The notes under the pieces were generated by a model. That model had not been told where the DNA came from and searched no databases. It saw only the letters and a list, made by a program, of their open reading frames with translations. This document shows, in pieces, positions 1,181-63,932 of a DNA stretch of 64,000 nucleotides (position 1 is the stretch's first letter; each line of letters starts with the position of its first letter). The stretch is from a virus (Duplodnaviria; Caudoviricetes): IMG/VR virus record IMGVR_UViG_3300010052_000153, positions 1 through 64,000 of that record, one strand, 5' to 3'. Made by a program: the position numbers and the translations under genes.

Positions 1181-1398
1181 GTCGCTACCAACCCAAACGC
1201 CTCGCACCACTTAGACCAGGCTCGTGCCAGCGCGTCTTTCGCTGCATCTTCCCTTCTGCACCAACCATAACCCTTTGTGATGTGCGCACCGCGGACGGCG
1301 CCGAGGTGCCAATGCCATCGGTCTGGCGCAATCTCTGAGATGTGCCCAACGACCTGGCCGTTCTGGCGGGCTGCACCCGCATCCCAATACAGCGTCAT
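1177..1398 (-). CDS. Hypothetical Trp-rich phage protein
   Basis: ATG 1398 overlaps the kinase stop (ATGA). Confidence 0.6.
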   Translation of the reverse strand: MTLYWDAGAARQNGQVVGHISEIAPDRWHWHLGAVRGAHITKGYGWCRREDAAKDALARAWSKWCEAFGLVAT

Positions 1399-2039
1399 TT
1401 CGTCCACCTAGTCAGCGCGTTTTCGACCCCCGCGAAAAGGGTAACCAAGTCGCCATCGTTCTCCAAGACGACATCGGCAACAAACTCCTGCCGCTCGCTG
1501 GCATGATCGCCGGCGATTCCACCGCGGCCAACAATGCGGAAGATTTCGCCACCCATCTTACGGACGACCGCAGCCTCGTTGGGGAAGCGGCAATCGTCGA
1601 CGACCACCCTACCCCGATTTTCAAGGACGTCATTGGCGGCCCGCTGCCAGAGGCCAATCCAGAAGTCCGCACCGATGCAGTTCCGCCCCCATTCGGTGCC
1701 CAGCGTTTGCATCGCATGACGGGGCGTCTTGCCACATAGAAGGGCGTGTGGCGCTTCCTTTGCGACGCCGTCGATGTCATGGGGGCTGAAGCCCAGCGCC
1801 GCCATAGCGGCCTTGAGCGGGCCAGCAAAGCGCAAGCGCGTGTAACCGTGCATATCAACCAGGTATTGCGCCGCCGTGCTTTTGCCACTTCCTGCGACAC
1901 CCGCAAGGGCGACAACCTTCGGCAGATTATCATTGGCCGGTGGCGGTGGGCTTACGGTCGCGCCGAGAACCCTGTCGCAGAAACTGTCGCCGATGGGCTG
2001 GTTACCCCAAGGGGTGTATAGTTGAGCTGCTGATGCCAC
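1395..2039 (-). CDS. Deoxynucleoside monophosphate kinase
   Basis: Walker A GVAGSGKST; FAGPLK, TPRHAMQTLGTEWGR and DDCRFPNE motifs of T4 gp1-like dNMP kinases. Confidence 0.85.
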   Translation of the reverse strand: MASAAQLYTPWGNQPIGDSFCDRVLGATVSPPPPANDNLPKVVALAGVAGSGKSTAAQYLVDMHGYTRLRFAGPLKAAMAALGFSPHDIDGVAKEAPHALLCGKTPRHAMQTLGTEWGRNCIGADFWIGLWQRAANDVLENRGRVVVDDCRFPNEAAVVRKMGGEIFRIVGRGGIAGDHASERQEFVADVVLENDGDLVTLFAGVENALTRWTK

Positions 2040-2042
2040 GCG

Positions 2043-2285
2043 TCAGTGACTCCATTTTACATTGAGGGATTTCATATCTTCAAGCGATACCCCGACATTG
2101 GCTGCCACAAGGGCGCACTGCGCCCATCCCAGCCACCTGCCAAGCTTCGCTTCCGAGAACGTTGGCGTCACGCGCGACAACATCGAGCGCAGATGCGCCA
2201 ACCCGAGTTCGTTGCCGGGAAGTTCCGGCATGCCCGCGACCTGTGCGATGTGAACGGTTTCGCGGAAGGCTTCGTGCTGGTTCAA
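2043..2285 (-). CDS. Hypothetical phage protein
   Basis: 80 aa ORF in operon; KLGRWLGWAQ motif. Confidence 0.6.
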   Translation of the reverse strand: MNQHEAFRETVHIAQVAGMPELPGNELGLAHLRSMLSRVTPTFSEAKLGRWLGWAQCALVAANVGVSLEDMKSLNVKWSH

Positions 2286-2287
2286 AG

Positions 2288-2668
2288 CTAGACGTCCTCC
2301 TTCACCCTGCGGCGTGGTGCACCTTCACGCACAGGCGTGGTGCGTCTCGGTCCCTCTGGTGCGTTGATCTTGAAATCCGGGTCAGCAGCTATTCGCCGGA
2401 AGATTGCTAGCGGATCTTTCACCAGCGGCCGGAAGCGCGATGCGCGGAACGGCATGTCCGCCGCACCGTACCCTTCAGGTCCATCATCGTTGCCGCGGTC
2501 GACTTCGATCAGCTTCACGCCGAGGAATTCCCCGTCAACATAGTGGGTGTACATGCCCACCCACCGAAGGGTATAGATTGCCCCCTCCCGAATGCCTTGA
2601 TCGATGCTGACGTTATTGAACTTGTCATCGATGCAGACGACCTGCTGTCCGACGTAGAAGTGATTCAT
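2288..2668 (-). CDS. Hypothetical protein (SH3-like N-terminus)
   Basis: FYVGQQVVCI...GAIYT pattern; coupled ORF. Confidence 0.65.
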   Translation of the reverse strand: MNHFYVGQQVVCIDDKFNNVSIDQGIREGAIYTLRWVGMYTHYVDGEFLGVKLIEVDRGNDDGPEGYGAADMPFRASRFRPLVKDPLAIFRRIAADPDFKINAPEGPRRTTPVREGAPRRRVKEDV

Positions 2669-2853
2669 CGGGTTACCTCTGACCTGGAAGTCATGTCGAC
2701 ACTGCGGAGCAGTTCAACTGCACGATAGGCCGGCGAGCAGACGCAAGGCGTGAAAGCGCAGCTACCAGCGCACGACAAAAAGCCCTCGCGACCACCGGCA
2801 TTCAAGGCCGCGTACAGCGCGTCGGCCGCCTTCGAGTACTCGCTGATCATCAT
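2665..2853 (-). CDS. Hypothetical Cys-rich small protein
   Basis: 62 aa, overlaps both neighbours by 4 nt. Confidence 0.5.
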   Translation of the reverse strand: MMISEYSKAADALYAALNAGGREGFLSCAGSCAFTPCVCSPAYRAVELLRSVDMTSRSEVTR

Positions 2854-3740
2854 GCCGCAAGCCTCGTGATCGCCATTTCGCGATCCAGTTTCCGATACAG
2901 GTCAAGGAAGTAGATTTCAGCGCGCTTCGGCTCCCATCGGTGTATCGTCAAACCGATCGGGTTGTTATAGCCAGCGGCCCACTCAGCGACGCAAGGCGCC
3001 ATGTTGGCGCGCTCATCTGCGATGATGCGGCCGTCCAGTTCATGGACACATGGCGGCATTTCAGTTGGTAGTCCGAACCGCTCGCAGACCACCTTCATTA
3101 CGCGCGCTTCGGCGGGCTGGTAGCCTTCCAGAAATGGCTTCACTGGTCGCGGGACATCAACCAGGTAGGCTTCGCTGGCATCGTGCATCAACGCCCATAG
3201 GCAAATCCAAGGCTCGGCACCCTGTTGGCGCAAGTAGCTTGCCAGAAGCCATGAGTGCTCAGCGACGCTATAGAAATCGATGCAGTGACCGGCGTATCGG
3301 CATTGCATCGACAGTGCGTGTGCTATGTCTTCGATCAAGACTTCCGACGCGCGAGGGTCCATCGGCCAGAATTGGCGACCGGTGAAAGTCTGCATCCAAT
3401 CGCCACGACGAGGTTCAGGGAAAACCTTTCCGACGGCCGACGGCAGACCGTAGGTGTCAACCGGGACGATGCCAGCTTCAGCGAAGCCGTCGCGCGCTTC
3501 CGTGTTGCGAAACATCCGGGGCGCATTGTCGTTGGTTGGCGTGCCGGGTGCCACGCTCCACAGCATCTCTCGGCCATCATCAAGGATCACAGTCTGGCAA
3601 CCATCCATGTCGCGTTTCGTCGCAATCACGCGAGCTTTCGGCAGATCAACTAACGGCCCGAAAGTGGTTTCGGCCCAGGTCTCCCGCGGTACGTACCGCT
3701 TCTCGACGGAACACCAGTCAAAGGATTCAGAGTTCGACAT
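2850..3740 (-). CDS. HD-domain phosphohydrolase (YfbR-like 5'-deoxynucleotidase) with N-terminal extension
   Basis: DIAHALSMQCRYAGH, YSVAEHS, LMHDASEAYLVDVPRPVK motifs; start set at ATG 3740 behind GAGG. Confidence 0.8.
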   Translation of the reverse strand: MSNSESFDWCSVEKRYVPRETWAETTFGPLVDLPKARVIATKRDMDGCQTVILDDGREMLWSVAPGTPTNDNAPRMFRNTEARDGFAEAGIVPVDTYGLPSAVGKVFPEPRRGDWMQTFTGRQFWPMDPRASEVLIEDIAHALSMQCRYAGHCIDFYSVAEHSWLLASYLRQQGAEPWICLWALMHDASEAYLVDVPRPVKPFLEGYQPAEARVMKVVCERFGLPTEMPPCVHELDGRIIADERANMAPCVAEWAAGYNNPIGLTIHRWEPKRAEIYFLDLYRKLDREMAITRLAA

Positions 3741-4332
3741 CTGCGGCCTCCAATTCATTGAGGCATCTGAACATCGTGCGACCCGATTTGAATTGCAGCG
3801 ACGTATGCCAATGTCCGAAAAACCATTGTCTAGGCTGATGCAGATGGAACATCCGCTCCAGGGCCTGGCGCGTTCGACTGCCATATTCTTCAAATTTTCG
3901 CCGCCCAAGGTGGCATAGCATCAAGTCGGCGATGCTTTCCGGGTAATCGTGCGTGATGACGATTTCCGGTTTGATGGCGGCGTACTCGTCAATCATACGC
4001 TCAAGATCGGCGTAGCTACACTCTTCGTCCGCCCACCAATCGAAACCTTCTGTCCGGCAGACGCGATCGATGCTTACCGCGCCGCCTAGACAATACATGC
4101 CATCAACGGTCGTCCCGTCCGCTACCCAACGCGGATGCGATCGGCACGCGCCAGGACTATCGTGATTGCCGCGGATGAACAGGTGGCGTCCATCGGCATC
4201 CGGCAAAGGCGGAGTTCTAGGGAAGCCGATCCCCATATCCCCAACCTGAAGACTGAAGCTCACCTCGCGTATCAGATCGCGGTACCTTAGAAAGCGACCG
4301 TGAACATCGCCTATAATGCGGACGCTTGTCAT
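3727..4332 (-). CDS. Calcineurin-like metallophosphoesterase
   Basis: GDVHG, GD, IRGNHD, THD and FGHWH motifs. Confidence 0.85.
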   Translation of the reverse strand: MTSVRIIGDVHGRFLRYRDLIREVSFSLQVGDMGIGFPRTPPLPDADGRHLFIRGNHDSPGACRSHPRWVADGTTVDGMYCLGGAVSIDRVCRTEGFDWWADEECSYADLERMIDEYAAIKPEIVITHDYPESIADLMLCHLGRRKFEEYGSRTRQALERMFHLHQPRQWFFGHWHTSLQFKSGRTMFRCLNELEAADVEL

Positions 4333-4556
4333 TCCGCAAACGCCTTGCCTACCCGCACCAAATGGTGCCCCAAATCGGCACTCGCCAAATGCTTAGGGAA
4401 GCTGGATGGCGCGTCGTCGACCTTCTTAGCCAAGTCTTCAACGACTCGCTTGAATGCGGTCATCTGCTCCAGAAAGGCGTCGGTCACTGCCTTCAGTTCA
4501 GCACTGAAGGTTTCAAGTGTGAGCGGCTCGGTTGGTTTGTTGCCCGAGTTGAACAA
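4329..4556 (-). CDS. Hypothetical coiled-coil protein
   Basis: 75 aa ORF, GGAG RBS, coupled to downstream gene. Confidence 0.55.
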   Translation of the reverse strand: MFNSGNKPTEPLTLETFSAELKAVTDAFLEQMTAFKRVVEDLAKKVDDAPSSFPKHLASADLGHHLVRVGKAFAE

Positions 4557-5058
4557 TGTAATCTCCGGGGTCTATTGGATAATTGTCGTTAGCGGCCTGC
4601 ACATTTGGTAACCGCTCAAGGATGATGAGCTTGCGCCGTTTTGTGACTCCGCATTTCCGCCATCCAGCCTTTTGGAAACAAAAGCCAGGATTGCTGCTCT
4701 TCACTTTTTCAGCAGAGACGTAAGTGTAATGCCGTTCGCCAGGCCACTTCTGATCAGCTAGAGAATCTGCCTCTCGTATTAGTTCGCTAGATTTACGAGG
4801 TCCCTCGTTTCGAAATACTGCGCAGTTGACGCCTTTCTGGCCATCGGCGCTTATGAAGCGACGCCAAACAAAAAGGGCGCGCGCGTCAGCCGTGAGCATC
4901 ACCATTTTTTCGCCTGGCCCGACGAACAATTTTGGTTGGCGCCCGTCTTTGTAGAAGTAGCGGCTGTAGTGGCGATCGAAGATGGAGCGCGCCGTGTCGT
5001 TGCCATCCTTGACCTCGATCCACCCGTCACCGAAAAGAAACGGCTGCTCCCACATCAA
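4513..5058 (-). CDS. Putative GNAT-fold (Mom-like) protein
   Basis: RHYS, GPGEK, CAVFRNEG and YTYV...S.NPGFCFQKAGW motifs recall phage Mom-like acyltransferases; assignment from memory. Confidence 0.45.
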   Translation of the reverse strand: MMWEQPFLFGDGWIEVKDGNDTARSIFDRHYSRYFYKDGRQPKLFVGPGEKMVMLTADARALFVWRRFISADGQKGVNCAVFRNEGPRKSSELIREADSLADQKWPGERHYTYVSAEKVKSSNPGFCFQKAGWRKCGVTKRRKLIILERLPNVQAANDNYPIDPGDYIVQLGQQTNRAAHT

Positions 5059-5306: not shown

Positions 5307-6575
5307 TCAGGCCGCTGCTTTGTTAGCGCTTGGGGTGTTATCGTTGGCAGCCGTGCGGCCTGCCACCATGCCAGGTGTCAAGGTCAGACGCGCCACCTCG
5401 CCAAAATCTGCGTGATAAGTGATCACTTTCGCCGATCGACCCGACAACCACCCGCCGTTCGCGGCGTAGGCGTCTGCCGCCGCAAGCGTTTCGTGACGCT
5501 CAACCTTCATCAGGTTCGTTGTCAGCAGAGCATCCGAATGCAGGTGTCCGAGGTGGGCATAGCTGTACTTGGTTCGGCCGTAGACCTCGCGGAACTTGCC
5601 GGCGAAGACGCTGTCCACGTTGTCAAGCTTCCGCTTATGGCCGTGGTGATAGAACAGAGAGACGTCGCCGTGCTCGAACATGTAGTAGGTGCCGGCGCCA
5701 GCATCGACCGTAACGCGTGGCTCGTCGTCGTAGAACGCCGCGAACATTTCGCGCAGCCACGCTTCGCTCGCCGGGTCGTGGTTCGCGTCGGCCATGATGA
5801 CGTGCACACGATCGTGCTTTTCAAGCAGCATCTGGATGATGCGCCGCAACGACCGGATGACCACCCGAATGACCTTCGGAAGACGGCTGTCAGCATCCAA
5901 GATGTGGCCGCTCGTCGGCGTCTTCGATTCAAAGCCGTCGTGGTGCAGCAGGTCGCCGATCTGCGCCAGAATGGCGGTCGACGCATTAGGCGATGCCGCC
6001 ACAGCCGCTCCGAACCAATCGAGTAGTAGCCGCTCTGCGATGTTAAGGTCGTAGTCGGCGCCTGTTTCCTCGCGCCACGACAGCATACCGAAGTGCAGGT
6101 CCGTGACGGTAAACTGGTTGACGAGGTCAGGGCGATTGAAGTTCCGGGGCACGTCCACAGGATGTGCGCGCGGCAGGTCTTCTTTAAACGCCTCGATAGC
6201 AGCGCGCATGGCCGCATGTTGGGCGGCTCTATCAGGCTCCACCCGCAGCCAATCCTGAATGACGCGACCTTCCGCATCACGATTGACCGTAATTTTGCCG
6301 GTGACGTGCGTCGGCGGAATCTCGTAGATTTCTCCGGGTGCCTTCACCTGCCTGACATAAGTGTCGCCGATCTTCTCTGACAGGCTTGAAATGACGTAGC
6401 CGGGCAGCGTCGCCGCCGGACCCATCATTCCGCGCTCCGCGGCGCGTGCCAACCTGTCGTGGAAGGTGGACCGAGCACATCCTGCGGCTGCCGCAGCAAG
6501 CCGCTCAGTGCCGTGCTCTTCGTAAAGGCGCACGGCCTCCATCAACGTCTCGTCTGAGAGTTTAGTCAAATGCAA
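5307..6575 (-). CDS. N-terminal HTH fused to metallophosphoesterase domain
   Basis: HTH (TERLAAAAAGCARSTFHDRL) plus TDLH, GDLLHHD, ANHD, HHGH and GHLH motifs; ends AANDNTPSANKAAA. Confidence 0.75.
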   Translation of the reverse strand: MHLTKLSDETLMEAVRLYEEHGTERLAAAAAGCARSTFHDRLARAAERGMMGPAATLPGYVISSLSEKIGDTYVRQVKAPGEIYEIPPTHVTGKITVNRDAEGRVIQDWLRVEPDRAAQHAAMRAAIEAFKEDLPRAHPVDVPRNFNRPDLVNQFTVTDLHFGMLSWREETGADYDLNIAERLLLDWFGAAVAASPNASTAILAQIGDLLHHDGFESKTPTSGHILDADSRLPKVIRVVIRSLRRIIQMLLEKHDRVHVIMADANHDPASEAWLREMFAAFYDDEPRVTVDAGAGTYYMFEHGDVSLFYHHGHKRKLDNVDSVFAGKFREVYGRTKYSYAHLGHLHSDALLTTNLMKVERHETLAAADAYAANGGWLSGRSAKVITYHADFGEVARLTLTPGMVAGRTAANDNTPSANKAAA

Positions 6576-6596: not shown

Positions 6597-6857
6597 TTAG
6601 GGCGTTGACAGACCTGCCGACGACATCAGGCGACGATAGCGGCCGGTGCTCTTTATGCGGGCTCGAATTGCGTCAACGATCTCGCCGTGACGCATTAGTG
6701 TCGTGTCGAACACGACCCTCGCCTGTCCCACTTGGTTTACGTCGAACTCTGCGACGATGCTGTCTAGGATTTCAAACGGAATTATCAGGCAGCCGTTATG
6801 GACGCCCAGCACAGGCTGCTCAGGCGTAGCCAACTCCGATGACATGTCATTCATCAA
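6597..6857 (-). CDS. Hypothetical phage protein
   Basis: 86 aa ORF, GGAGG RBS. Confidence 0.6.
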   Translation of the reverse strand: MMNDMSSELATPEQPVLGVHNGCLIIPFEILDSIVAEFDVNQVGQARVVFDTTLMRHGEIVDAIRARIKSTGRYRRLMSSAGLSTP

Positions 6858-7546
6858 GCCGCCTCCCGTTCCCTCTTGGGCTCGTTGTCGTTCTCAGCCA
6901 ACACCTTGTAGGTGTGACTTGCGGCAGTCAGGAAGACGATCACGCCTTCGGGTTTTGCGAATCCCGGCGCAGCGACGGACCCTTCCGTCACGAGCTTGGT
7001 CATTGTCTCGTCGACCGCCGTTGTTGAGAAGTCACCGGCATACAACACCGGAACCACGCCGCAGCAGGCAGGCCGGTCATTCGACCAGCGACCAGCGTTG
7101 AATAGTGAGAAGCGGCGCTCTTTCAGGTCGTATCCACGCTGAATGCCGAGACCCCACCACTCGCCAAAATGGCGACCAACGCCGAGCTCACGCAATTCGT
7201 CGGTGTGCTTCTGCACCCACGCCGCGAAGCCAAAATTGTCGTTATCCGGAGTGATCCACCGATTGCGACTACCCGCGCGTACGCTGCCGTCTTCGCCAAC
7301 GACAATCTGCGCATTCGTGCCGTCAATCTTTTCGGTGATGATGCAGCCGCGCTTAAGGCGCGGGATTTTCGGGAACGGAACGTATTTTTCTGCGCGACTA
7401 TCGACAAACGACTTCCAATCATCCCAACCGCGGTCGAGAGTGGACCAATCGCCAGCGCGCCAAGCCTTTAGAAAAGGCTGCGTCTCGTGCAGATCCAAGG
7501 TGACCGCGAAGTCGATCGCCAAATTGAAATCCTCGTAGCGGTGCAT
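6854..7546 (-). CDS. ATP-dependent RNA ligase family protein
   Basis: Nucleotidyltransferase motif I TEKIDGTN, plus SRNR, FGEWWG, FSLFN and EGVIV; start ATG 7546 behind GGAGG. Confidence 0.8.
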   Translation of the reverse strand: MHRYEDFNLAIDFAVTLDLHETQPFLKAWRAGDWSTLDRGWDDWKSFVDSRAEKYVPFPKIPRLKRGCIITEKIDGTNAQIVVGEDGSVRAGSRNRWITPDNDNFGFAAWVQKHTDELRELGVGRHFGEWWGLGIQRGYDLKERRFSLFNAGRWSNDRPACCGVVPVLYAGDFSTTAVDETMTKLVTEGSVAAPGFAKPEGVIVFLTAASHTYKVLAENDNEPKREREAA

Positions 7547-7547
7547 C

Positions 7548-8000
7548 TCACCCTCCGACAGAAAATTCAGGTTGTTCGGCTTGCTTGGTTTCAGTGTCCG
7601 CGACCGGCGGCTCGCCGTCGAACTCGACGCCACCCGGCACGAGCTCGTCAGCATCGCCAGGCACGCGCGCGGTGACAGTCCCTTCCCCATCTAACGCCGC
7701 CTGCAGGTCGTTTGCGCTAGCTACTGAATAGGGCAGGACATAGTAGACGGCCGGCTGATTGGGCGACGCCAGCAACGCGTAGATTGCAACGTCGGGGACG
7801 ATCTGCGCGCCCACTACGGTGTAATGGCCGGCAGGGGGTGACGTGAAACGGGGCTGCCCCAACGGCACGTACAAGGCGAGCGCTGCGGCAGCGATCGCAG
7901 GCGTCAGCGTCAGAGCCGCCAGCCGGCTTGATGCAAGCCAAGCGAATGCACACAGCAGTAGCGCCAACGCCAACCATGTCGTTGCAATGACCATTGTCAT
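7548..8000 (-). CDS. Membrane protein, third gene of MotA/ExbB-like triad
   Basis: Two N-terminal hydrophobic helices followed by a soluble domain; coupled to upstream gene. Confidence 0.7.
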   Translation of the reverse strand: MTMVIATTWLALALLLCAFAWLASSRLAALTLTPAIAAAALALYVPLGQPRFTSPPAGHYTVVGAQIVPDVAIYALLASPNQPAVYYVLPYSVASANDLQAALDGEGTVTARVPGDADELVPGGVEFDGEPPVADTETKQAEQPEFSVGG

Positions 8001-8587
8001 TTGCCCTTGCTCCGCAGTTTTTTGAAGACCTGGTGCGCGGATCCGGGAACGACCTGTCCGTTGTTATCAAGCGTGAATCTGACGACAGTCCGCTCTTGGT
8101 CCTGACGCAGGTCCAGCTTCGTCGCCACCAGCAACTTCATCGCATCAGCCGAAGCCCCGTAAGACACTTCGACGAAGACAGACACGGCTCCAAGCGGGAG
8201 TGAGTAACCATGGACGTTGATGATGTACTCGCCTGCCGGCGTCGAACGGGCGAACGCGTTCTCCATGTTGACCGGCGACAGCTCTCCGTCGATTCCGCGA
8301 TCGTCTCGCAACAGGCTAAAGAGCTTCCCGCTTCGATTGCTGTAGCCTGTCGCCTTGTCCTGACCTGGACCAGTCACCCACAAGTCAACATCGCCTGGTC
8401 CTTCCGGCCAAGCTATCGCAACCGCGACTGAACCTGGCGGGCTGACCGTTACCGTATTCTGGTCAGTACGCGGGTTGATGCTGGACAAGGCCAACAACGC
8501 GTACGCGGAAAGAGCGAACACCGTCACCAGAAGGATGTCGACGTATGCCCAAAGCCAATCGTCCGCTGACTTTCCCATCCGACGCAT
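7997..8587 (-). CDS. MotB/ExbD-like single-pass protein with YfaP/DUF2135-like periplasmic domain
   Basis: TM segment WLWAYVDILLVTVF with intramembrane Asp; DVDLWV.GP, LLRDDRG and N.EN...GEYIINVH motifs. Confidence 0.65.
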   Translation of the reverse strand: MRRMGKSADDWLWAYVDILLVTVFALSAYALLALSSINPRTDQNTVTVSPPGSVAVAIAWPEGPGDVDLWVTGPGQDKATGYSNRSGKLFSLLRDDRGIDGELSPVNMENAFARSTPAGEYIINVHGYSLPLGAVSVFVEVSYGASADAMKLLVATKLDLRQDQERTVVRFTLDNNGQVVPGSAHQVFKKLRSKGK

Positions 8588-9057: not shown

Positions 9058-9278
9058 TTGGACGCCTTGTCGATTGAACGATATTGCGGGTCGGTGGGCA
9101 CCCATTCGAAGAAGATTCCTTCGTGGACACTTCTTGCGCTGCGCTCGACAAATTCGAGCCACCGCACCTCGTTTGGACCTACCCGGACGGGGTACCATGC
9201 GAACCATCGTCGCCACTCAGCGAAATAGTTCCTCGCATCGTTTCGACGAAGGCTCGTCGACCGCCGGCGAAATTTCAT
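9054..9278 (-). CDS. Hypothetical protein (WRRWFAWYPV motif)
   Basis: ATGA-coupled on both sides. Confidence 0.65.
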   Translation of the reverse strand: MKFRRRSTSLRRNDARNYFAEWRRWFAWYPVRVGPNEVRWLEFVERSARSVHEGIFFEWVPTDPQYRSIDKASK

Positions 9279-47028: not shown

Positions 47029-47030
47029 CC

Positions 47031-50058: not shown

Positions 50059-50093
50059 TTTACACACGCGTGTGTATTGTGTATATGTGTGTA
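50059..50093. promoter_or_regulatory. hicAB promoter/operator
   Basis: Perfect palindrome TACACACGCGTGTGTA (50061-50076) plus a related second site; TTTACA-N17-TATATG. Confidence 0.65.
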
Positions 50094-50112
50094 GTCAATT
50101 AGGATGAATTCG

Positions 50113-55521: not shown

Positions 55522-56040
55522 TCAGGCCGCCTTCACAGCGATCGTTTCACCCGGCTCGCCCATGCGAGCGCCCCGCACCTTTTTGCCGGCCATCAGCGCT
55601 TCCTTAATGGCCGCCTTGTCCGGCTCGATCCTCTCGCGCCGGTATGCCTTCGGCAGTTGGCGTTCATTCAGTATCTCAACCTTTGCCGGGGTCGCCCGAA
55701 CCGACAAGGTGGCCTCAACAAGTGGCGCTTTCGGAATGCCGCCGGCCTTCATCAAGCGGTGCATTAGACTGCGCATAGCTGCCTGCCGACGTTCATAACG
55801 CCACTTCCGAGACTGCAGATTAGAGATGCGCGAGGCAGTCGCGCTGACCATGGTTTCGGCGTCGCGCTCAACAGCCAACAAGCGTGACAGAACGTCGTAA
55901 GCAGAAGTGCTGCCCTCGATCATATCCGCCCGCAACGCTTCATCATCAGCAAGTTCGGGGTATTGAGCGAACAGGGACTCTATCTCAGCCTCGAGGTTGG
56001 CTACGTCGGCCTGAAGGAACGTTTCGTTGTTGCGCTTCAT
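55522..56040 (-). CDS. Siphovirus Gp157-like protein
   Basis: Coiled-coil N-terminus; LP..Y.....PDK.AIKEAL..G..V.GA; ends AA. Confidence 0.8.
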   Translation of the reverse strand: MKRNNETFLQADVANLEAEIESLFAQYPELADDEALRADMIEGSTSAYDVLSRLLAVERDAETMVSATASRISNLQSRKWRYERRQAAMRSLMHRLMKAGGIPKAPLVEATLSVRATPAKVEILNERQLPKAYRRERIEPDKAAIKEALMAGKKVRGARMGEPGETIAVKAA

Positions 56041-56276
56041 GGGGCAATCTTTCTGAACTCGTCTTTGTCGTGGTCTTCCGCGCGCGCATGAGCCTGCGCC
56101 AGGCGGATCGCGTCGTGGCGGACGATTATCCATCCGCTGGCGCGCAGATGAGCGATGATCGCATCGGCCTGTTCGCTGGCTGCGTCGGTCAATGGATAGA
56201 CGAGGCGCATGGCGCGTCGCTGGTATTCAATGAGCGCTTCCGCAATGCGCGCTCTTGGCTCAGAACGGGATGTCAT
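56037..56276 (-). CDS. Hypothetical phage protein
   Basis: 79 aa, coupled to neighbours. Confidence 0.55.
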   Translation of the reverse strand: MTSRSEPRARIAEALIEYQRRAMRLVYPLTDAASEQADAIIAHLRASGWIIVRHDAIRLAQAHARAEDHDKDEFRKIAP

Positions 56277-59076
56277 CCATTGCCCTCAAGTCGTCTTCGG
56301 AAAGATGGCTCAGCCCGCCGCGCCAATTGTCGTTGTCGGCAGACATGTCGTTGTCGTTATCTGCCACCTGCTTTTGATCTCCTGTGCGGTGGTCTAGAAC
56401 ATTCCAAAATCGGCCATTGGGCTCGACCTCGATTTCCGATGTCACGAAAAGTTCCGTCTGGCGTTCAAGCCACTCAAGCGCGGACTTAGGGAAAGGGAGC
56501 TTTCCGCCGTGACGACGCCAATACCGGTCCGCGTTCGCCTTCGCTCGCCCCCGGTGCGCCGGGCAACACCACTCATTGATAGCGTTCGGGCCACACATGT
56601 AGGCAACCTTGACGCTGTCGGGCTTTCCTCCTTTCCCTTCGTGATACCGAAAGGCTCGTGACTTTACTTCGCGCCAACGTGCATCGCCCGTCGACAAGAT
56701 CGGCGCGTCGCTTGCTTGGTCATTCAGCTTCGGCTCTGGTGCCGGGAATTGATGGCCGCATTTCCAGCAGACCTGCACCGATGCGTGCAGCTCCTCAATG
56801 CACGACGGACAGACCTTGATTGGCGCGTCGCCGTCGCCCTTCCCTGGCTTCTTCGGCTCGATCATATCTACCGGACCGTGCCGACGCAGGTTGCCGGCGA
56901 AGTCCATGTAACGACAATCGCGCTTCGGCCCGGCTGCTATGGCCGCACGGCGCCCCGCGGCGTCCGTAGCGTCGGGGTCAAACCCGAGCGGGTATATCAC
57001 CCGCGTGCCACGGCCAACGCGCTGTACGTACCGCGAGGCGGACGCTGTGGGCGCCTGGTCGACGATTAGGTCTATGCCCGGTACATTGGTGCCCGTGGAC
57101 ATGACATTGTCGTTTGTTAGTGACCAGATTTCTCCAGCCTTCAGTGCGGCAATAAGGTTGCGTCGCAAGGTCGGGTCAGTGCCGCCATGGATCACTTCGC
57201 AGGACTTGCCGGCATCTAGGACAAGGTCACGCATGTGGGTCGCGTGCGCGACGCCAGCGCAAAAGAAAAGCGCACTGCGACGATGCCCTTCGACGTCTAA
57301 AACCTCCTGAAGAATGCGACGGTTTAGTTCATCCTTGTCGACGGCCGCCTGGAGTGCCGACTTCTTGAAGTCCCCTCCCAATTTTCCGACGCCGGACACG
57401 TCTTGGCGTACCGAGGTCGGGGTCGAGGTGATCGGCGACAAATAGCCATCATCGATGCCCGCCCGGATGCCGTAGGTGTAGACCACCTTGTCGAACAGCC
57501 GATCATCGCCTTCATCCAATCGCCCGCTGTCCAGGCGATACGGCGTTGCCGTAAACCCGCATATCTTCATGTCCGGGTTGATGGCGAGTAGCGCATCGAT
57601 GAAAGTGCGATACATCGTGTTCTGCCTCGCCGGCACGAGGTGAACCTCGTCGATCAACAGCACGTCGACGTGACCGATTTCCGCAGCCTTGTTGTAGACG
57701 GTCTGGAGTTGGGCAAAGAGGATCTGCGCCGATGCGCGCCGTTGGTTTAGCGATGCCGCATAAATGCCGGCCGGGGCGAATGGATAGATACCGAGGAGCT
57801 CAAGGTAGTTGCCCTCGATTAGCTCGACGACATGCGTCACGCAGGCGACTCGTATGTCGGGATAATCGCGAAGCATCTCTTTCGAGAGCGTGGCCATCGT
57901 CATCGACTTTCCAGTGTTGTGATGCACCGTAAAGTCGCCGGTCAGATACAGATGGTCGCCGTCAAGCGCGAAGCCGTAGTAGTCTCCAACTCCGATCGGC
58001 TCGACAGTGAAGCTTGTCACAAGCGGGGACTTCTTCTGCAGTCGCGGCAGGGCCTGCTTGCGCTTTATCCTAGTAGGAATGGAATGAGTGTCACCAGAGA
58101 TAGACACTCGCCAATACGATCCACCGCGTCCGTTCTGGTCGCGCTTTTGGCATACCTTCGCATAGGCCGCGAAACCTAGACTTCGCGAGATAAAAGCGAC
58201 GTCTTCCGCAAGTTGCTTCGATTTGGAAATAAAGTCGAACGAGTTAGGTCCGGCTAGGCTCCCATCTGTGTCGATGATTCCGGCGAGCAATTCCAAGCGG
58301 TCATCACGACTTGAAGTCTTGTAGGCGTGTGGAACGCACTTTTCCTCACATCGCAGGCCATATACCCCAGCCGATTGCAGCTTGATCACCAATTTGTTGC
58401 GGCGAGTGTTCCTGGCATTGTCATCGGAAGCGTGCACAGAAACGGCGATGTTATCTGGCTTCTGTCTAACGCGGCACCGAAGACCAATTGCCTCGACATA
58501 TTCTTGAAACTCATTGATGACTGCGTCGTCGGCATTCGTGATCGAAACGCCGTTTGTCATACTGCCGTCGCCGAGAAGAATTCCTATTATCCAGGCGGGG
58601 ACAGGGAGCGGATTGTCGTTGGCTGGAAACTCAACCCCTGTCCGCCAGAGCTTGTGCAGGTGCTTCCAATTCGCAGACTTAACGAGATAATCCGATAGAC
58701 GAACGTTCTTGACCTCGCCACCTGACGTTTTGCAGGCGGGATAGCGCACCGCTACGGCGCCTTGGTTTGTGGTTTTCAAGGACAGAATATGTCCTTCATT
58801 CACAACAAACGGATCCCCCTTCGTTGGGGTTACTCGATACATCATCTCACGACCACGCGCCAAGGAAAGCACGCGCCGAGGGCGGCTATCCGGCCCCATG
58901 ACGTTATCGTTTGCAGCGACGAGTTCGACAGGCTTGGTTGTGCCGTCGTGCATGAGAATTTGGGTGCCGGCTGCATGGCATCCAGTGGCCATGTCGATAA
59001 GCGGATGGCCGGGGGTCTCTGCCCAATAGGCAAAGACGGAGTCCACGGCCTCCCGCTGGTAGTAGCGAAGTGGCAT
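56260..59076 (-). CDS. SF2 (DEAD/H-like) helicase with intein and C-terminal Zn ribbon
   Basis: LRYYQ, ATG|TGKS, IDEVH, TATP, STG...P.ID and QRVGRG motifs; C..C....C..C; ends DDIPF. Confidence 0.9.
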   Translation of the reverse strand: MPLRYYQREAVDSVFAYWAETPGHPLIDMATGCHAAGTQILMHDGTTKPVELVAANDNVMGPDSRPRRVLSLARGREMMYRVTPTKGDPFVVNEGHILSLKTTNQGAVAVRYPACKTSGGEVKNVRLSDYLVKSANWKHLHKLWRTGVEFPANDNPLPVPAWIIGILLGDGSMTNGVSITNADDAVINEFQEYVEAIGLRCRVRQKPDNIAVSVHASDDNARNTRRNKLVIKLQSAGVYGLRCEEKCVPHAYKTSSRDDRLELLAGIIDTDGSLAGPNSFDFISKSKQLAEDVAFISRSLGFAAYAKVCQKRDQNGRGGSYWRVSISGDTHSIPTRIKRKQALPRLQKKSPLVTSFTVEPIGVGDYYGFALDGDHLYLTGDFTVHHNTGKSMTMATLSKEMLRDYPDIRVACVTHVVELIEGNYLELLGIYPFAPAGIYAASLNQRRASAQILFAQLQTVYNKAAEIGHVDVLLIDEVHLVPARQNTMYRTFIDALLAINPDMKICGFTATPYRLDSGRLDEGDDRLFDKVVYTYGIRAGIDDGYLSPITSTPTSVRQDVSGVGKLGGDFKKSALQAAVDKDELNRRILQEVLDVEGHRRSALFFCAGVAHATHMRDLVLDAGKSCEVIHGGTDPTLRRNLIAALKAGEIWSLTNDNVMSTGTNVPGIDLIVDQAPTASASRYVQRVGRGTRVIYPLGFDPDATDAAGRRAAIAAGPKRDCRYMDFAGNLRRHGPVDMIEPKKPGKGDGDAPIKVCPSCIEELHASVQVCWKCGHQFPAPEPKLNDQASDAPILSTGDARWREVKSRAFRYHEGKGGKPDSVKVAYMCGPNAINEWCCPAHRGRAKANADRYWRRHGGKLPFPKSALEWLERQTELFVTSEIEVEPNGRFWNVLDHRTGDQKQVADNDNDMSADNDNWRGGLSHLSEDDLRAMDDIPF
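57916..58980 (-). mobile_element. Intein (355 aa) with LAGLIDADG homing endonuclease, inserted in helicase Walker A
   Basis: Starts with Cys (CHAAGT), ends HHN followed by +1 Thr; ILLGDGS and LAGIIDTDGS motifs; splicing restores MATGTGKS. Confidence 0.92.
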
Positions 59077-59089
59077 CAAAAACCTAGAA

Positions 59090-59584
59090 TCAGGCTGCGA
59101 ATTTGGCGATCGAACTGCGCGCCCGCACGGTCAACTGGCGCACCCGTTCCTTCGAAAGACCTTCGGTTTCTCCGATCTCGTGAAGCATTTCCCCTTGCGC
59201 AAGGCGCAGCAACATCTTGCCGCCGCGAGTTTCCGACAACACCGAGACAAGTTTGGCCAGATCAGCACTGTCATCTTGTGTTGGCGCGACTGACAACCCG
59301 CGGACTTGCGGGCTGTTGTCGTTTGCAACGGTTAGTCCGCGCAAACGGTCCCTCCTCCGTCGATCTTTGGTCGCGTTCAACAGTCGGAACATGAGCCATC
59401 GATGGAAGCTGCCTTCGGGACGGAACTTCTGCCAGTTCGCGAGCGCATCAGCAAAAACATCCTGCAGAACTTCATCACGCTCATTCGGGTGGCAATAGCG
59501 AGCAATAAGCGCCCTGAGCATCGGCAGATGCGCCATCAAACGCGCATCGAACTCGCGCGGACGATTGTCGTTTGCGGGGGTCAT
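59090..59584 (-). CDS. ECF-like sigma70-family factor
   Basis: D.LQD.F..AL.....F......F..WL (region 2); L.EIG...GLSKERVRQL (region 4). Confidence 0.8.
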   Translation of the reverse strand: MTPANDNRPREFDARLMAHLPMLRALIARYCHPNERDEVLQDVFADALANWQKFRPEGSFHRWLMFRLLNATKDRRRRDRLRGLTVANDNSPQVRGLSVAPTQDDSADLAKLVSVLSETRGGKMLLRLAQGEMLHEIGETEGLSKERVRQLTVRARSSIAKFAA

Positions 59585-60537
59585 GCTGCGGCCTCCATTT
59601 CCCGCGCGTTGTCGTTTGCCGCGCCGTCGATCCAAGTTTTTCCGTTTCGCAGGCGATAAGTAACCGTTTCGGCTTCATCGTCGCTGTCGATCAATTCGCC
59701 GGGTACCAGCGCCGGGATATGCAGATGCGCGGGACACCCCGCCTTCTGTTCGTCCACGGACAAAGGCTTCGACCACCTGGCGCACGACCAATGGGCATCA
59801 CCGCCCATCTCAGGCGTGCTGTGGAGGCACGACCGGCATGTCACACGTGGCCACGCACCATCGTGGCAAACCGACTTGTGGCGGCAGAACATGCAGCCAA
59901 AGAAGGCCGGGTCTTCACTGATGCGCGAGGGCGGCTCCGGGGAGTTGATGATGCGTTCGCATCGCGCCAACTGCCGCATGCAATAGTCGGCATCGTAGTG
60001 GATGCGCTCGACGTAAATGGTGTCGGTGTTCTTGCACGACGCCATGTACAGCGCGCGCGTCAACCCGAACGCATGGCAGCCAATCTGACATTGCCCGTAA
60101 TGCAACGGCTTCGCCTTCTTGCATCCTTCCTTTTCCAGTTTCTTGATGCCGTCTTCGTTCGAAGATTTGAACTCGCAGAGGTGCTCGGTCTTCGGCGCTT
60201 CGGGAATGCCGATCGCCGTGCCGTCGCGTTTGCCGCGAACATGTCCGCCCACCAGGCGAATACGATCCTGCTCGCCCCAAACTTCGACACCGATACGCTG
60301 CAGGTCGGCAATCAGCCGACCTTCTTCCAAGTTGCCGGTTTCAAACAGCCGCAGCTTGCGTCCGTTTAGGACTTCGGGCTTGCTGACCCAATGCAGGCCG
60401 AACCAAAGCGCGCGATCGCATTCTTGGCCGATGTCGCCAACACTTATGCCTAAGCTATCGTAGTGGCGGTTAGCGGCTTCGTAGGCGGCGTAAATTGCGC
60501 GGACGGTTGACGACTGCGGCTTCGGTATCGGCGCCAC
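59581..60537 (-). CDS. Cas4-like PD-(D/E)XK exonuclease
   Basis: C.RALW, F.TG..EE, G..DG, EFKS, HY.Q.Q and C.FC....C motifs. Confidence 0.8.
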   Translation of the reverse strand: MAPIPKPQSSTVRAIYAAYEAANRHYDSLGISVGDIGQECDRALWFGLHWVSKPEVLNGRKLRLFETGNLEEGRLIADLQRIGVEVWGEQDRIRLVGGHVRGKRDGTAIGIPEAPKTEHLCEFKSSNEDGIKKLEKEGCKKAKPLHYGQCQIGCHAFGLTRALYMASCKNTDTIYVERIHYDADYCMRQLARCERIINSPEPPSRISEDPAFFGCMFCRHKSVCHDGAWPRVTCRSCLHSTPEMGGDAHWSCARWSKPLSVDEQKAGCPAHLHIPALVPGELIDSDDEAETVTYRLRNGKTWIDGAANDNAREMEAAA

Positions 60538-60778: not shown

Positions 60779-60966
60779 GGTGCGACGGCCTCTCTGTAGG
60801 CATCTTCGCACTCGGACTTCGACATCCACTTGGGCATAAAGGCTCTCTCTAGGGTGGTTATCGCGTCGTCGTATGCTCCGCGCCGAATATCATTGATCGC
60901 GTCGACCGCTGCTTCGCGCGCGGCCCACTCATCATCGTCGTCCAAGTCGTCCCTCAACACCATCAC
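60775..60966 (-). CDS. Hypothetical acidic small protein
   Basis: 63 aa, coupled to clamp gene. Confidence 0.55.
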   Translation of the reverse strand: MMVLRDDLDDDDEWAAREAAVDAINDIRRGAYDDAITTLERAFMPKWMSKSECEDAYREAVAP

Positions 60967-62009
60967 ACCCTCATCGGCATGCCGACGACCCGCAAATTGG
61001 CGTTGGACGGACTGCTAAACAGGAGGGGGCTCCCGCTATCAAAGATGGCAATCTGGATAATCCCGTCTGGCAGGGCAGCCAGGATGTCGGACAGATATTG
61101 CGCATTGATGCCGACCTCGACCGGATCACCATCGTAGTTGCACTCGACAACGTCGGTTGCCTCACCGGACCCGCGCGCCAAAAGCGATATCTGGCCGCCA
61201 GCTACTGACAAGCGCACCCCGCGACCGCGATCTGACGAAACCACGATGACGCGCGCCGCAGCCGCGCGAAGCTCGGCCGCATCCACCTGAATTAGCTTGT
61301 CATTGCTCTTAGGAATGACGCGCTCATAATCGGGAAACGTGCCATCGATCAGCTTCGATGTGATGACGACGTTCGGCGCGGTGAAGCGCACCTTTGAATC
61401 CGATAGCTCCACCTTAAGCGTACCTTCCGGCAAAAGACCCACGGTCTTGCGCGGTATGATTGCTGGCACGAAACGACCCACGCCTTCAGTCGTCTGCGTC
61501 GACAGGCGGTGGCCGTCCGTTGCGCACGCAACAAGCAGTCCATCCTGCTCGTGTAGGTAGACCCCGTTGAGATAGAATCGCGTCTGCTCTGTGGACATGG
61601 CGAACGACACAGGCGCCAGAAACGATGATAGGTCAGCTTCGAATTCGATCTCGAACGCCCCTGCATTCATGTCAGGGAAGTCGGAGGTGGGCAGAACTTC
61701 CAGCTTGTACTTCGAACGCCCGGATCGAAGTGTGGCGCCGTGTCCGTCCTCCTCAAGAAGAAGGTCGTCGCCCGTGACCCGGCTTACAATGCTGGCCAAA
61801 AGTTTGGCATCGATGCACGCAGCGAAGTCTCCATCTTCGGCCGAAATGCTGCCTGATACTTCGATGTCCAAATCAGTAGCAGACACAGTCAGTGTACCCG
61901 CCTCTGCGACGAGCCGAACCGTCGACAGAATAGGAATGGTGTTGCGGCCTTCGACAACTTTGACGGTGTCGGTCAACAGGCGTGCGAAATTTTGGCGCGA
62001 AACGCGCAT
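60963..62009 (-). CDS. dnaN: DNA polymerase III beta sliding clamp homologue
   Basis: RNTIPILS, ATDLDI, TEQTRFYLNG, ATDGHRL, SKLIDGTFPDY.RVIP, IN..YL and VGMPMRV motifs; GGAG RBS. Confidence 0.92.
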   Translation of the reverse strand: MRVSRQNFARLLTDTVKVVEGRNTIPILSTVRLVAEAGTLTVSATDLDIEVSGSISAEDGDFAACIDAKLLASIVSRVTGDDLLLEEDGHGATLRSGRSKYKLEVLPTSDFPDMNAGAFEIEFEADLSSFLAPVSFAMSTEQTRFYLNGVYLHEQDGLLVACATDGHRLSTQTTEGVGRFVPAIIPRKTVGLLPEGTLKVELSDSKVRFTAPNVVITSKLIDGTFPDYERVIPKSNDKLIQVDAAELRAAAARVIVVSSDRGRGVRLSVAGGQISLLARGSGEATDVVECNYDGDPVEVGINAQYLSDILAALPDGIIQIAIFDSGSPLLFSSPSNANLRVVGMPMRV

Positions 62010-62070
62010 GGGGAAGTCTCCGAAGGGGGGTGGTGGGCGGCGCGTACGCCGCCCCATGACAGCAAGAACT

Positions 62071-62310
62071 CTAAGCGATGAGTTCGCCGACCTTGCCGCG
62101 CACGCGACTAGCGCGTGCCTTGATTGCCTCAAGGTCTTCCGCCCGCGCATTTGCGTTCACGGCAGCCTGACGCTCGCGTGCAGCCTCGGCAGCCTTGTCC
62201 GCTTCGAACTTCTCAAGCGCGGCGTCGATCTTCGTGAGTGCACGAAGGATGCCGTCCAGCGATTGGCCACCAAAGCCGAATGCCGCAAGCAACTTGATGA
62301 AGATGTTCAT
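62071..62310 (-). CDS. Hypothetical coiled-coil protein
   Basis: 79 aa; GGGA RBS. Confidence 0.6.
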   Translation of the reverse strand: MNIFIKLLAAFGFGGQSLDGILRALTKIDAALEKFEADKAAEAARERQAAVNANARAEDLEAIKARASRVRGKVGELIA

Positions 62311-62321
62311 ATCCCGTTCCC

Positions 62322-62942
62322 CTATTTCTTTGCGCCCCACGGGAGGCGGCGACCGGTGGCCGCCGACGTCCCCGATGCGGTCTGCGTCTGCGACGCCTGG
62401 CGATTGTCGTTGGCCGACTGACGTCCGTTGTCGTTCGCGGGTGCAGCCGGTCGATTCGGCTGAACAGCGTCTAGGGCGGGTTCAGGCACGTTGCCTTCGT
62501 CGGGGAAGAAGTATCGCTTCACCTCCATCCGAGCCGGGTACTTCGGAGTGCCGTCAGCGTTCTTTTCTTTAGACGGTTTACCGAGCCCCAAACGGACAGT
62601 GTAACTGATGAAGTGGAGCTGCTCAGAGTCTTCAATTTCCTCGATCTGGCAGGCCCGACGAAGGCAGGCAAACTCACGCTGCCCGATCTCCGCCGCCTGG
62701 CTGTTTTTGTGTTCGAGGTTGATGAACCCGAAATACTTCCGCCCTTTGATCTCCTCCGGCGCCAGCACGTTGGCCGTGTACTTTAGGCCGTTGCCGACAC
62801 GCGCATTCTCGGGACCGGTTTCGATGATCTCTGTTGTCTCAATTTCGAACTGCACGATACCCGCCGGCAGATCCTCGAAATCGCGCTGCGTGGTATCGAC
62901 GTCACCCGCGGTATATGTTTTGCCAAAACTGGCCATTCTCAA
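62322..62942 (-). CDS. SSB-like protein (DUF669-type)
   Basis: LPAG....I, G......F..., Q......LH and disordered tail ending PW. Confidence 0.7.
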   Translation of the reverse strand: MRMASFGKTYTAGDVDTTQRDFEDLPAGIVQFEIETTEIIETGPENARVGNGLKYTANVLAPEEIKGRKYFGFINLEHKNSQAAEIGQREFACLRRACQIEEIEDSEQLHFISYTVRLGLGKPSKEKNADGTPKYPARMEVKRYFFPDEGNVPEPALDAVQPNRPAAPANDNGRQSANDNRQASQTQTASGTSAATGRRLPWGAKK

Positions 62943-63144
62943 ACGTCTCCAGGTGCGGAGGGTATAAGGCCGATAGTGCTGTGACGAGTTCGGCCAGGTT
63001 TTGCAGGGGCACGGCGACTAGGTCGCTGTCCTGCTCGATGCTCACGGAGTCACCCCCGTATCCGAGCTTCACCCTGATATCGCTCCAGCGATAGTCAGGG
63101 CCACACCGCACCACAGTGGGCGCGGCGTCCGTGTGCGGGGTCAC
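62902..63144 (-). CDS. Hypothetical phage protein
   Basis: 80 aa, coupled to ATPase stop. Confidence 0.5.
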   Translation of the reverse strand: MTPHTDAAPTVVRCGPDYRWSDIRVKLGYGGDSVSIEQDSDLVAVPLQNLAELVTALSALYPPHLETFENGQFWQNIYRG

Positions 63145-63932
63145 GCGGCCGCCTTTTTCTCGCCGCCATTGTCGTTCGCCGGCAACCAGAATTTGCTTAC
63201 GTCTGCGTAGCCGTTGCCCTTCACATACTTGATCGTGTCGGGCATGCTGTAGCGGTTCTTAGCAACATATCCTGCGCCTTCGGCGAGATGAATCTGCCGT
63301 TCCTTGCCGCCTTCAGCATGGGCCACGGTCTTTTTTGGACCAACCTCTTTCTCCTTCAGGGAGACGCGATAGTTCATGAACGCGACGATATCGGCCTGTT
63401 CCCGCACCAGTGCATTGCCGCGCTTGTGCAGCTTCGGCGTATAGCGGCTGTAGGGGTCTGTCGTCGGGCTGTCGAACCGGATGATTTCCGGGTGGGCAAG
63501 CATCACGACATGCATGCCTGAGGCCGCCAATGCAGAAACGCCGCTAAGGAAGTCGCGCCACTCGTTGTCGGCTTCAACATAGCCCTTGCCGAAGCCAGGC
63601 TCCTCGATGCTACTAACGCCAAGACGTGCTGCGGTTGCAGCCCAAATGAGTGGCTCCAACCCGTCCAGGCTGTCGATGATGACCGTCTTGAGGTCGTGCC
63701 CGCCTTCAAGCAATTCGCCGATGACATTGATGATGTCGTTGAAAGACTCGATCGTGCCCGGCGTCGGGATATCTACGCCCTTCGGCGCGCGTTCACCCTC
63801 TGTCGGCAGGTAGATCGGCGACGGAAACTCTGCCGCGAAACTGGTCTTTCCGATGCCATCGACGCCGTAGACCAGCATGATGGGCGGGTTGATCGACGTG
63901 CTCGATTTCAAGCTCTTGATGGAAATTGCCAC
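63141..63932 (-). CDS. AAA_24/Sak4-like ATPase (recombination)
   Basis: YG..GIGKT, IIDSLD.LE, GFGKGY, PY.RY..KLH, E..D.V.F and AKNRY motifs. Confidence 0.85.
   Translation of the reverse strand: MAISIKSLKSSTSINPPIMLVYGVDGIGKTSFAAEFPSPIYLPTEGERAPKGVDIPTPGTIESFNDIINVIGELLEGGHDLKTVIIDSLDGLEPLIWAATAARLGVSSIEEPGFGKGYVEADNEWRDFLSGVSALAASGMHVVMLAHPEIIRFDSPTTDPYSRYTPKLHKRGNALVREQADIVAFMNYRVSLKEKEVGPKKTVAHAEGGKERQIHLAEGAGYVAKNRYSMPDTIKYVKGNGYADVSKFWLPANDNGGEKKAAA

Follow-up and report, generated by a model that had tools for sequence, protein, structure and literature searches.

The first 64 kb of the 82,927-bp IMG/VR provirus record IMGVR_UViG_3300010052_000153 (positions 1 to 64,000, hereafter the window) raise the question of why one tetrapeptide, Ala-Asn-Asp-Asn (ANDN), is written again and again into the proteins of a phage. 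The record is a temperate rhizobial prophage of the phage 16-3 group. Its nearest relative by protein was the temperate Sinorhizobium phage 16-3 (Sak4 identity 69%), and no cultured phage close to the record at the DNA level was found. The same four residues open the tags of transfer-messenger RNA (tmRNA, encoded by ssrA) in the hosts of related prophages. In the window proteins, a tag head identical to the host head occurred in 18 in-frame copies, and a free C-terminal Ala-Ala (AA) stood at a tag-like distance in six tails. The motifs were ordinary codons before normal stops and not the product of co-translational addition by tmRNA and SmpB. Encoded within open reading frames, they are not tmRNA tags and would be mimics of them. 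Judged from the sequences, it is somewhat probable that the [A/P]-A-N-D-N written into these genes mimics the head of the ssrA tag, so that it would dock on the adaptor SspB and, where AA follows, would feed its carrier to ClpXP. The five-residue identity of the head, the linked AA ends, the disordered placement, the exclusion from virion proteins, the convergence of portals that are unrelated and the occurrence of SspB in the hosts together point to this encoded mimicry.

Occurrence of ANDN in the Window

Six-frame translation of the window gave 19 copies of ANDN on the minus strand, which codes for nearly all of the genes, against 1 on the plus strand; for NDN the values were 30 and 2. The first-pass annotation of this DNA had reported 18 in-frame ANDN in 14 minus-strand proteins and six tag-like C-terminal tails. 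The count was matched exactly, and all six tails, of the form ANDN-x(4-7)-AA, read as quoted. The sites and their NDN variants are listed below.

1926-1937, minus strand: PANDN in the N-terminal extension of a dNMP kinase, just ahead of the P-loop (gene 1395-2039)
3525-3536, minus strand: TNDN variant preceding an HD-type dNMP phosphatase domain (gene 2850-3908)
4582-4593, minus strand: unknown protein (gene 4513-5058; PHROG 24928 domain to residue 150), AANDN in its C-terminal tail
5307-5348, minus strand: tag-like tail AANDNTPSANKAAA-stop of a DNA repair exonuclease-like protein (gene 5307-6575)
6854-6895, minus strand: tag-like tail ENDNEPKREREAA-stop of an RNA ligase (gene 6854-7690)
7993-8004, minus strand: out-of-frame ANDN across an ATGA stop/start overlap, outside the system
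32049-32081, minus strand: tag-like tail PANDNSSRRAA-stop after a Gly-rich linker, lambda-family portal (gene 32049-33671)
33743-33754, minus strand: VNDN-V-P variant in the C-terminal tail of TerL, past the nuclease domain (gene 33653-35677)
38595-38606, minus strand: second AANDN of a 245-amino-acid regulator-like protein, at a position kept in p107 of phage 16-3
38733-38744, minus strand: AANDN at residues 7-11 of the same regulator-like protein (gene 38028-38765)
38834-38845, minus strand: SNDN variant, 12 residues before the end of a 191-amino-acid protein (gene 38804-39379)
49113-49124, minus strand: AANDN in the Prim-Pol/AAA_25 interdomain linker of a primase-polymerase (gene 47727-50192)
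51123-51155, minus strand: tail AANDNKHLVAE-stop of a DNA methylase (gene 51123-51923)
53043-53078, minus strand: tag-like tail PANDNAPERVAA-stop of a PAPS-reductase-like protein (gene 53043-53747)
53985-54023, minus strand: tail AANDNLPLFGAMG-stop of an N6/N4 DNA methylase, with LPLFG resembling a beta-clamp motif (gene 53985-55352)
56260-56361, minus strand: helicase tail with two tandem ADNDN and the end DDIPF, like the SSB C-terminal tip (gene 56260-59079)
58612-58623, minus strand: PANDN directly before the LAGLIDADG domain of the helicase intein
58903-58914, minus strand: AANDN within the Hint part of the helicase intein
59315-59326, minus strand: VANDN in the linker joining sigma regions 2 and 4
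59564-59575, minus strand: phage sigma factor (gene 59090-59635), N-terminal MTPANDN
59581-59619, minus strand: tag-like tail AANDNAREMEAAA-stop of a Cas4-domain exonuclease (gene 59581-60537)
62403-62438, minus strand: two ANDN in the disordered tail of an SSB-like (DUF669-type) protein (gene 62322-62942)
63141-63179, minus strand: tag-like tail PANDNGGEKKAAA-stop of a Sak4-like annealing protein (gene 63141-63932)

By composition, 0.25 ANDN was expected in the 24,177 called codons, and shuffling within proteins averaged 0.30 copies and peaked at 3 over 2000 shuffles, in agreement with the earlier estimate of well under one chance copy. NDN was missing throughout 8,005-32,069, where the genes for the head protease, the major head protein, the baseplate, the sheath and the tape measure are located. 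The accessory block at 40-47.7 kb contained a single INDN, in a 1233-amino-acid protein, and no ANDN. To call the motif proteome-wide was an overstatement: many non-virion proteins carried it, and otherwise only the portal and TerL did. Two carrier labels lacked support, since the protein at 4513-5058, called Mom-like, matched an unknown PHROG family, and that at 5307-6575, called an HTH-phosphoesterase, matched "DNA repair exonuclease".

Past the window, toward the right end of the record, two in-frame ANDN fell in plus-strand genes, at 81422 and 81570; one of them read MTPANDNRP and resembled the sigma N-terminus. The presence of ANDN in these genes indicates that the motif follows the coding strand.

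Identity With the Host tmRNA Tags

The tmRNA tags of five host genomes of related prophages were ANDNNAKEYALAA, ANDNKAQGYALAA (two hosts), ANDNNAKGYALAA and ANDNNKAPVALAA. All five began with ANDN and ended with LAA, as had been anticipated for the host, and the full tag, including the Ala carried by tmRNA, was A-ANDN-x7-LAA. The consensus of 399 distinct contexts in the phage family was [A or P]-A-N-D-N-x-P, with A or P at -2 and A at -1. Because the tmRNA-carried Ala followed by ANDN gives AANDN, the phage consensus equals the head of the full host tag.

The premise that the hosts possess the adaptor was also borne out, as SspB was encoded in 5/5 of these genomes. In 4/5 sspB was next to ssrA, within a few hundred bases and on the same strand. 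The structures of SspB from Agrobacterium (2NYS) and Caulobacter have been solved, and a like complex is available (2QAZ). ANDN was absent from a 320-kb host sample (0 in 92,955 codons). In the 5.3-Mb genome of Agrobacterium pusense, 20 of the 43 ANDN-coding sites lay in a 54-kb prophage and one was the tmRNA gene. The comparison with the host proteome thus came out as the first-pass annotation required, with host DNA nearly free of ANDN.

Selection on the Peptide

The octamer AACGACAA occurred in 31 copies in the record, and 21 of the 22 copies within same-strand genes were in codon phase 0. Across 428 distinct family sites, AAC and AAT were used at background frequency at both Asn positions. 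The excess of GAC for Asp and of GCC for the preceding Ala was a codon-pair bias that is general before any AAY codon in these genomes. Every codon was used for the Ala and Pro flanking the motif, and the use of all four Ala codons, both Asn codons and both Asp codons was as described before. Many out-of-frame copies had been named as a finding that would speak against the peptide; such copies were rare, as shown by the octamer phase and by the one out-of-frame ANDN. The phase-0 bias and the background synonymous usage do not support a promoter, a Chi-like sequence or an RNA signal. Selection acts on the peptide and not on the DNA, and a DNA-level motif was ruled out by codon phase and by neutral synonymous and codon-pair usage.

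Placement of the Motif and the Ala-Ala Ends

Strict ANDN was located outside Pfam domain envelopes, in termini and interdomain linkers, the exception being the two copies in the helicase intein. N-terminal placement was found in the dNMP kinase, sigma factor and 245-amino-acid regulator, and linker placement in the primase-polymerase and sigma factor. C-terminal tails bore the motif in the exonucleases, methylases, PAPS-like protein, portal, Sak4 and SSB-like protein. The carriers were replication, recombination, modification, regulatory and packaging proteins. In an alignment of SSB-like orthologues, picked solely for their spread of identity (38-70%), the first A-N-D-N was invariant (16/16) within a variable low-complexity tail. 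The predicted local distance difference test (pLDDT) values of the AlphaFold model were 33-42 for this ANDN tail and 77-94 for the core. Helicase orthologues had two tandem copies followed by a DD[IV]PF end. In sigma and Gam-like orthologues the motif lay within a few residues of the start, and NDN was among the first 40 residues in 19 of 26 sigma orthologues. For the 245-amino-acid regulator, a single orthologue was found among five full relatives.

Several of these carriers had additional terminal features. The SSB-like protein (62322-62942) had a conserved C-terminal R-P-W-G following the ANDN tail, which is a further candidate docking motif. The end of the SNF2/ResIII-type helicase, MDDIPF (56260-56277), resembled the SSB C-terminal tip, with DD[DE][IV]PF in relatives. 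The Gam-like protein at 55522-56133 began with MDNRPP, whereas most orthologues began with MTKPANDN; the MDNRPP start may reflect decay of the N-terminal motif or a wrongly called start.

Proteins ending in AA made up 17% of the called proteins here and 25% in the family loci, compared with 6% in the 320 kb of host DNA and approximately 1.5% by composition. The host count in that Agrobacterium pusense sample, obtained with heuristic gene calls, was 17/279 against about 3.7 expected. The AA ends were tied to the motif. Of 94 distinct NDN tails in the family, 62 ended in AA, against 25% of all family proteins, and the most frequent distance from NDN to the end was 12 residues, which is the spacing of the host tag. 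The corresponding distance in the six window tails was 9-12 residues. In this record alone, an NDN tail and a terminal AA were associated (6/9 versus 13/97, P = 0.0009). The terminal AA of Sak4 was kept in 47 of 58 orthologues whatever DNA follows, and NDN came and went among them.

Distribution Among Phages

The enrichment was shared by approximately 80 related loci from viral and bacterial collections, with 412 ANDN in 353,709 called codons. The hosts of these loci were Agrobacterium, Rhizobium, Brucella/Ochrobactrum, Falsochrobactrum, Devosia, Ahrensia, Consotaella and Pseudaminobacter, and a related locus was also present in one Roseobacter metagenome-assembled genome. In seven full genomes, ANDN was depleted in virion proteins (3 in 25,706 codons versus 86 in 108,571 for others, P = 2e-5), and so was terminal AA (3/92 versus 109/511). 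Phage 16-3 had approximately 19 in-frame copies, including the Xis N-terminus, the portal tail and a trypsin-like protease. The portal encoded here belonged to PF05136 and that of 16-3 to PF04860, and no sequence similarity between the two was detectable. Both end in ANDN-x-AA, indicating that the tails arose independently.

Homologues of Sak4, SSB and the helicase are present in the lytic Brucella phage Tb, which infects the same host group. No in-frame ANDN was found in it, and 1/48 of its proteins ended in AA, so that the proposed check on other phages gave an unrelated phage of the same host group without the motif. Two distant Sak4 relatives of 68-74% GC also had no ANDN. A scan for the coding pattern of AANDNxPA returned at least 120 loci; among the matches listed, 51 had three or more ANDN, and only 3 of these had no genes in common with either this record or 16-3. 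The coding pattern of AANDENY, the E. coli-type head, had 8 matches in all IMG/VR, which was estimated to be about chance level. Hence, there is no sign that the full head of the enterobacterial tag is mimicked in a comparable way.

Predicted Complex of SspB and the Portal Tail

A complex between residues 1-125 of Agrobacterium SspB and the portal tail was predicted at a score of 0.55, compared with 0.00 for the best control, in a setting where memory of a like solved complex (2QAZ) is possible. The mark for such predictions was reached by 58 of 80 solved complexes and by 2 of 110 mismatched pairs; at 0.60 or under there were only 7 of those 80 solved complexes, together with both of the passing mismatches. 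Contact agreement between the runs was at least 63%, and the pLDDT of the partner was at least 48. Because SspB-tag complexes have already been solved, the prediction shows likeness, not binding.

Gene Content of the Record

A contractile-tail virion module (head protease, major head, baseplate, sheath and tape measure) occupied approximately 9-32 kb. The window also encoded the lambda-type portal, TerL, tRNA-Pro and tRNA-Met. A replication, recombination and modification module contained the Sak4-like and SSB-like proteins, a phage beta clamp, the Cas4-type exonuclease, the sigma factor, the intein-bearing helicase, the Gam-like protein, two DNA methylases, the PAPS-reductase-like protein and the primase-polymerase. 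No SspB homologue encoded by the phage and no tmRNA gene were found in the record. Two of the window's genes are needed for the alternatives weighed below.

60963-62150, minus strand: the phage's own DNA polymerase III beta clamp, all three domains present; ANDN in 0/49 orthologues
9275-9922: trypsin-like serine protease (PF13365) at the edge of the virion module; also in phage 16-3 and 11/30 relatives

The beta clamp was found in 27/30 related records. Between ANDN and the end, DNA methylase tails had a stretch resembling a beta-clamp motif (53985-54023 in the window; about 30605-30650 in locus L259). The window methylase tail ends in AANDNLPLFGAMG, and that of a Rhizobium etli phage in AANDNSPQLSLFGDAA, an exact match to the QLSLF consensus; these tails suggest that the phage methylases may ride on the sliding clamp. 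The helicase (gene 56260-59079) was split by an intein with Hint and LAGLIDADG parts at protein residues of about 34-390, and two ANDN lay within the intein. A protein with an SRAP (SOS-response-associated peptidase) domain in the accessory block, at 46207-47043, had the C-terminus EVIAA.

Evaluation of the Explanations

Several observations weigh against the encoded mimic of the tag. The tags compared belong to hosts of relatives and not to the host of this record. Pro occupied +2 in 39% of the contexts, where host tags have Ala or Lys. The best-conserved copies had no AA after them, namely, those in the SSB-like tail (47/53), in the helicase tail (46/54) and at the sigma and Gam-like N-termini; hence, a single "degron" reading fails to cover all copies. 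In addition, 157 of the 399 distinct family sites lay 16-29 residues from the end, which is beyond the native-tag distance. Destruction tags on the portal and TerL look costly, and because nearly all carriers handle DNA, a hub of the replisome type would fit them as well. The support that the complex prediction lends to SspB docking is weak. For copies without AA, docking on SspB may amount to adaptor-dependent delivery via weak ends, to conditional exposure or to titration of SspB.

Among the alternatives, the motif could address another hub of phage or host origin, with its likeness to the tag being coincidental; the phage beta clamp, the SSB-like protein and a scaffold of the replisome or of recombination are candidates. 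The carriers are mostly DNA-transaction proteins, the phage has its own clamp in 27/30 relatives, ANDN stands beside clamp-like QxDLF/LPLF and SSB-tip-like DDIPF, and Pro at +2 is foreign to the tag. However, the chance of a five-residue identity with the host tag head was estimated at about 1e-6, and the linked AA ends would be left unexplained. The motif was also present on the dNMP kinase, the portal, the 16-3 Xis and a protease. ANDN lacks the hydrophobic pattern of a clamp motif, separate canonical clamp motifs occur in the same tails, and three ANDN-rich relatives have no phage clamp. We consider such a hub improbable, while still the strongest of these competitors. ANDN as a beta-clamp-binding motif in its own right (Q-x-x-[LM]-x-F) was rejected, being polar, with QADLF, QLSLF and LPLF adjacent to it and with clampless ANDN-rich relatives. 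A decoy role is somewhat less probable again. ANDN would then occupy SspB and slow host quality-control proteolysis or protect other phage proteins, and the carriers would not be meant for degradation. The many copies without a terminal AA, the tandem copies in abundant proteins (SSB-like protein and helicase) and the approximately 18-30 copies per genome agree with this role. A pure decoy would have no need of the terminal AA, which is strongly enriched and tied to NDN tails at native spacing; one abundant decoy would be cheaper than motifs over 14 proteins, and the motif is held at specific positions in specific orthologue groups.

The remaining two explanations are far less credible. ANDN might be a cleavage or recognition site of the phage trypsin-like protease (9275-9922), given that a PF13365 protease is encoded both here and in 16-3, that the 16-3 protease itself bears ANDN and that termini and linkers are where processing sites would be placed. 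The protease was found in only 11/30 relatives (11/27 of those at least 90% complete), and relatives without it were equally ANDN-rich; neither the tag identity nor the AA ends would be explained. We regard this explanation as very unlikely, and it was rejected on the distribution of the protease. The least probable explanation, which has hardly any chance of being correct, is a nucleic-acid signal that happens to translate as ANDN, such as a sigma-factor promoter, a Chi-like or packaging signal or an RNA element. The core DNA is indeed often AACGACAA with a strong strand bias, and 10/30 sites stood 9-15 codons before a stop, approximately 30-45 nt upstream of the next gene. The common codon phase of 21/22 genic copies speaks against it, as do variation confined to synonymous third positions that track background codon and codon-pair use, flanking Ala and Pro drawing on all codons, N-terminal and mid-protein copies unlike a promoter placement, and the convergence of unrelated portals at the peptide level.

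Proposed Mechanism and Its Implications

Under the encoded mimicry of the tag head, we infer SspB binding, ClpXP degradation and a purpose of the following kind. ANDN exposed in the disordered tails and linkers of non-virion proteins would dock on the substrate-binding domain of SspB, which would tether the docked phage proteins to ClpX. A tail with Ala-Ala at the tag-like distance, as in six proteins here, would act as a complete ssrA-type degron and lead to degradation by ClpXP. With other tail ends, or with an N-terminal or internal motif, tethering by SspB may result in weaker or conditional delivery. The delivery could be masked when neighbouring motifs are held by beta-clamp or SSB partners, or once the protein is assembled, as for the portal. 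The lifetime of replication, recombination, modification, regulatory and packaging proteins would in this manner be handed to the host SspB-ClpXP. Plausibly, the benefit would be that leaky lytic products are kept low in lysogens and that unassembled or unengaged proteins are cleared.

A bolder form of this mechanism, which we regard as doubtful, is that SspB is a hijacked hub read through a combinatorial tail code, in which ANDN is stacked with a clamp-binding or SSB-tip motif and with AA to give degrons gated by occupancy. A protein would be shielded while the clamp, SSB or an assembly engages it, and sent to ClpXP once free. Such a code would govern the whole replication and packaging programme and, in lysogens, would also erase leaky lytic proteins.

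If the encoded mimicry is real, bacterial viruses copy a host short linear motif over many proteins, as eukaryotic viruses do, with the tmRNA tag itself as the copied template and the SspB-ClpXP route as the target. It would allow short-lived phage proteins to be recognised from sequence by a simple rule. It would also open a new way to influence lysogeny control and the stoichiometry of proteins for replication and packaging, and would supply Alphaproteobacteria with natural degrons that are tunable and adaptor-dependent. The reading could be tested directly in an old laboratory system, Sinorhizobium meliloti with phage 16-3.

Comparison With Known Systems

In the literature, no report was found of a phage family that spreads the adaptor-binding head of the tag over many proteins. 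The closest system is the native alphaproteobacterial tmRNA tag, and two papers describe SspB as tethering ssrA-tagged cargo to ClpX (PMC9963277; PMC8138137). The phage motif shares the (A)ANDN head with this tag, and six phage tails share the Ala-Ala end at a similar length (NDN to end of 9-12 residues versus 12). The native tag is added by trans-translation, whereas the phage motif is gene-encoded. The central part of the tag is not reproduced by the phage, in whose copies Pro is common at +2 and the penultimate Leu is mostly lost. Moreover, many phage copies are N-terminal, internal or tandem and have no AA end.

Encoded C-terminal degrons are known from the C-terminal Ala-Ala of Caulobacter CtrA and from the ClpX signals of MuA and the Mu repressor. 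A hard-coded ssrA-like degron of Mycobacterium tuberculosis anti-sigma factors is described in a preprint (bioRxiv 10.1101/491043). The likeness to the phage tails lies in a hard-coded C-terminal signal that is recognised by ClpX. These degrons concern single proteins and the ClpX end only, whereas the phage also copies the adaptor-binding head, and does so over many unrelated proteins. Engineered, SspB-dependent weakened ssrA tags of the DAS/DAS+4 type (PMC3064785; 10.1101/2023.11.08.566101) likewise pair an intact SspB-binding head with a C-terminal end that is weak or altered, which makes degradation adaptor-dependent. They are synthetic and follow the AANDENY tag of E. coli; the phage versions are natural, follow the alphaproteobacterial tag and have a putative dependence on SspB.

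Viruses of eukaryotes mimic short linear motifs, and bacterial hub motifs include the beta-clamp motif QL[SD]LF and the SSB C-terminal tip DDDIPF. The phage motif resembles these in being short, placed in disordered tails, quickly gained and lost, convergent and apparently addressed to a host hub, and the same phage tails also bear clamp-like and SSB-tip-like motifs. It differs in that the proposed hub is a proteolytic adaptor and the copied template is an RNA-encoded tag, not a motif of a host protein. Finally, gp18 of phage pf16 is a phage-encoded SspB homologue (PMC5587285), which likewise links a phage to the SspB pathway; pf16 copies the adaptor, whereas the phage described here would copy the ligand of the adaptor.

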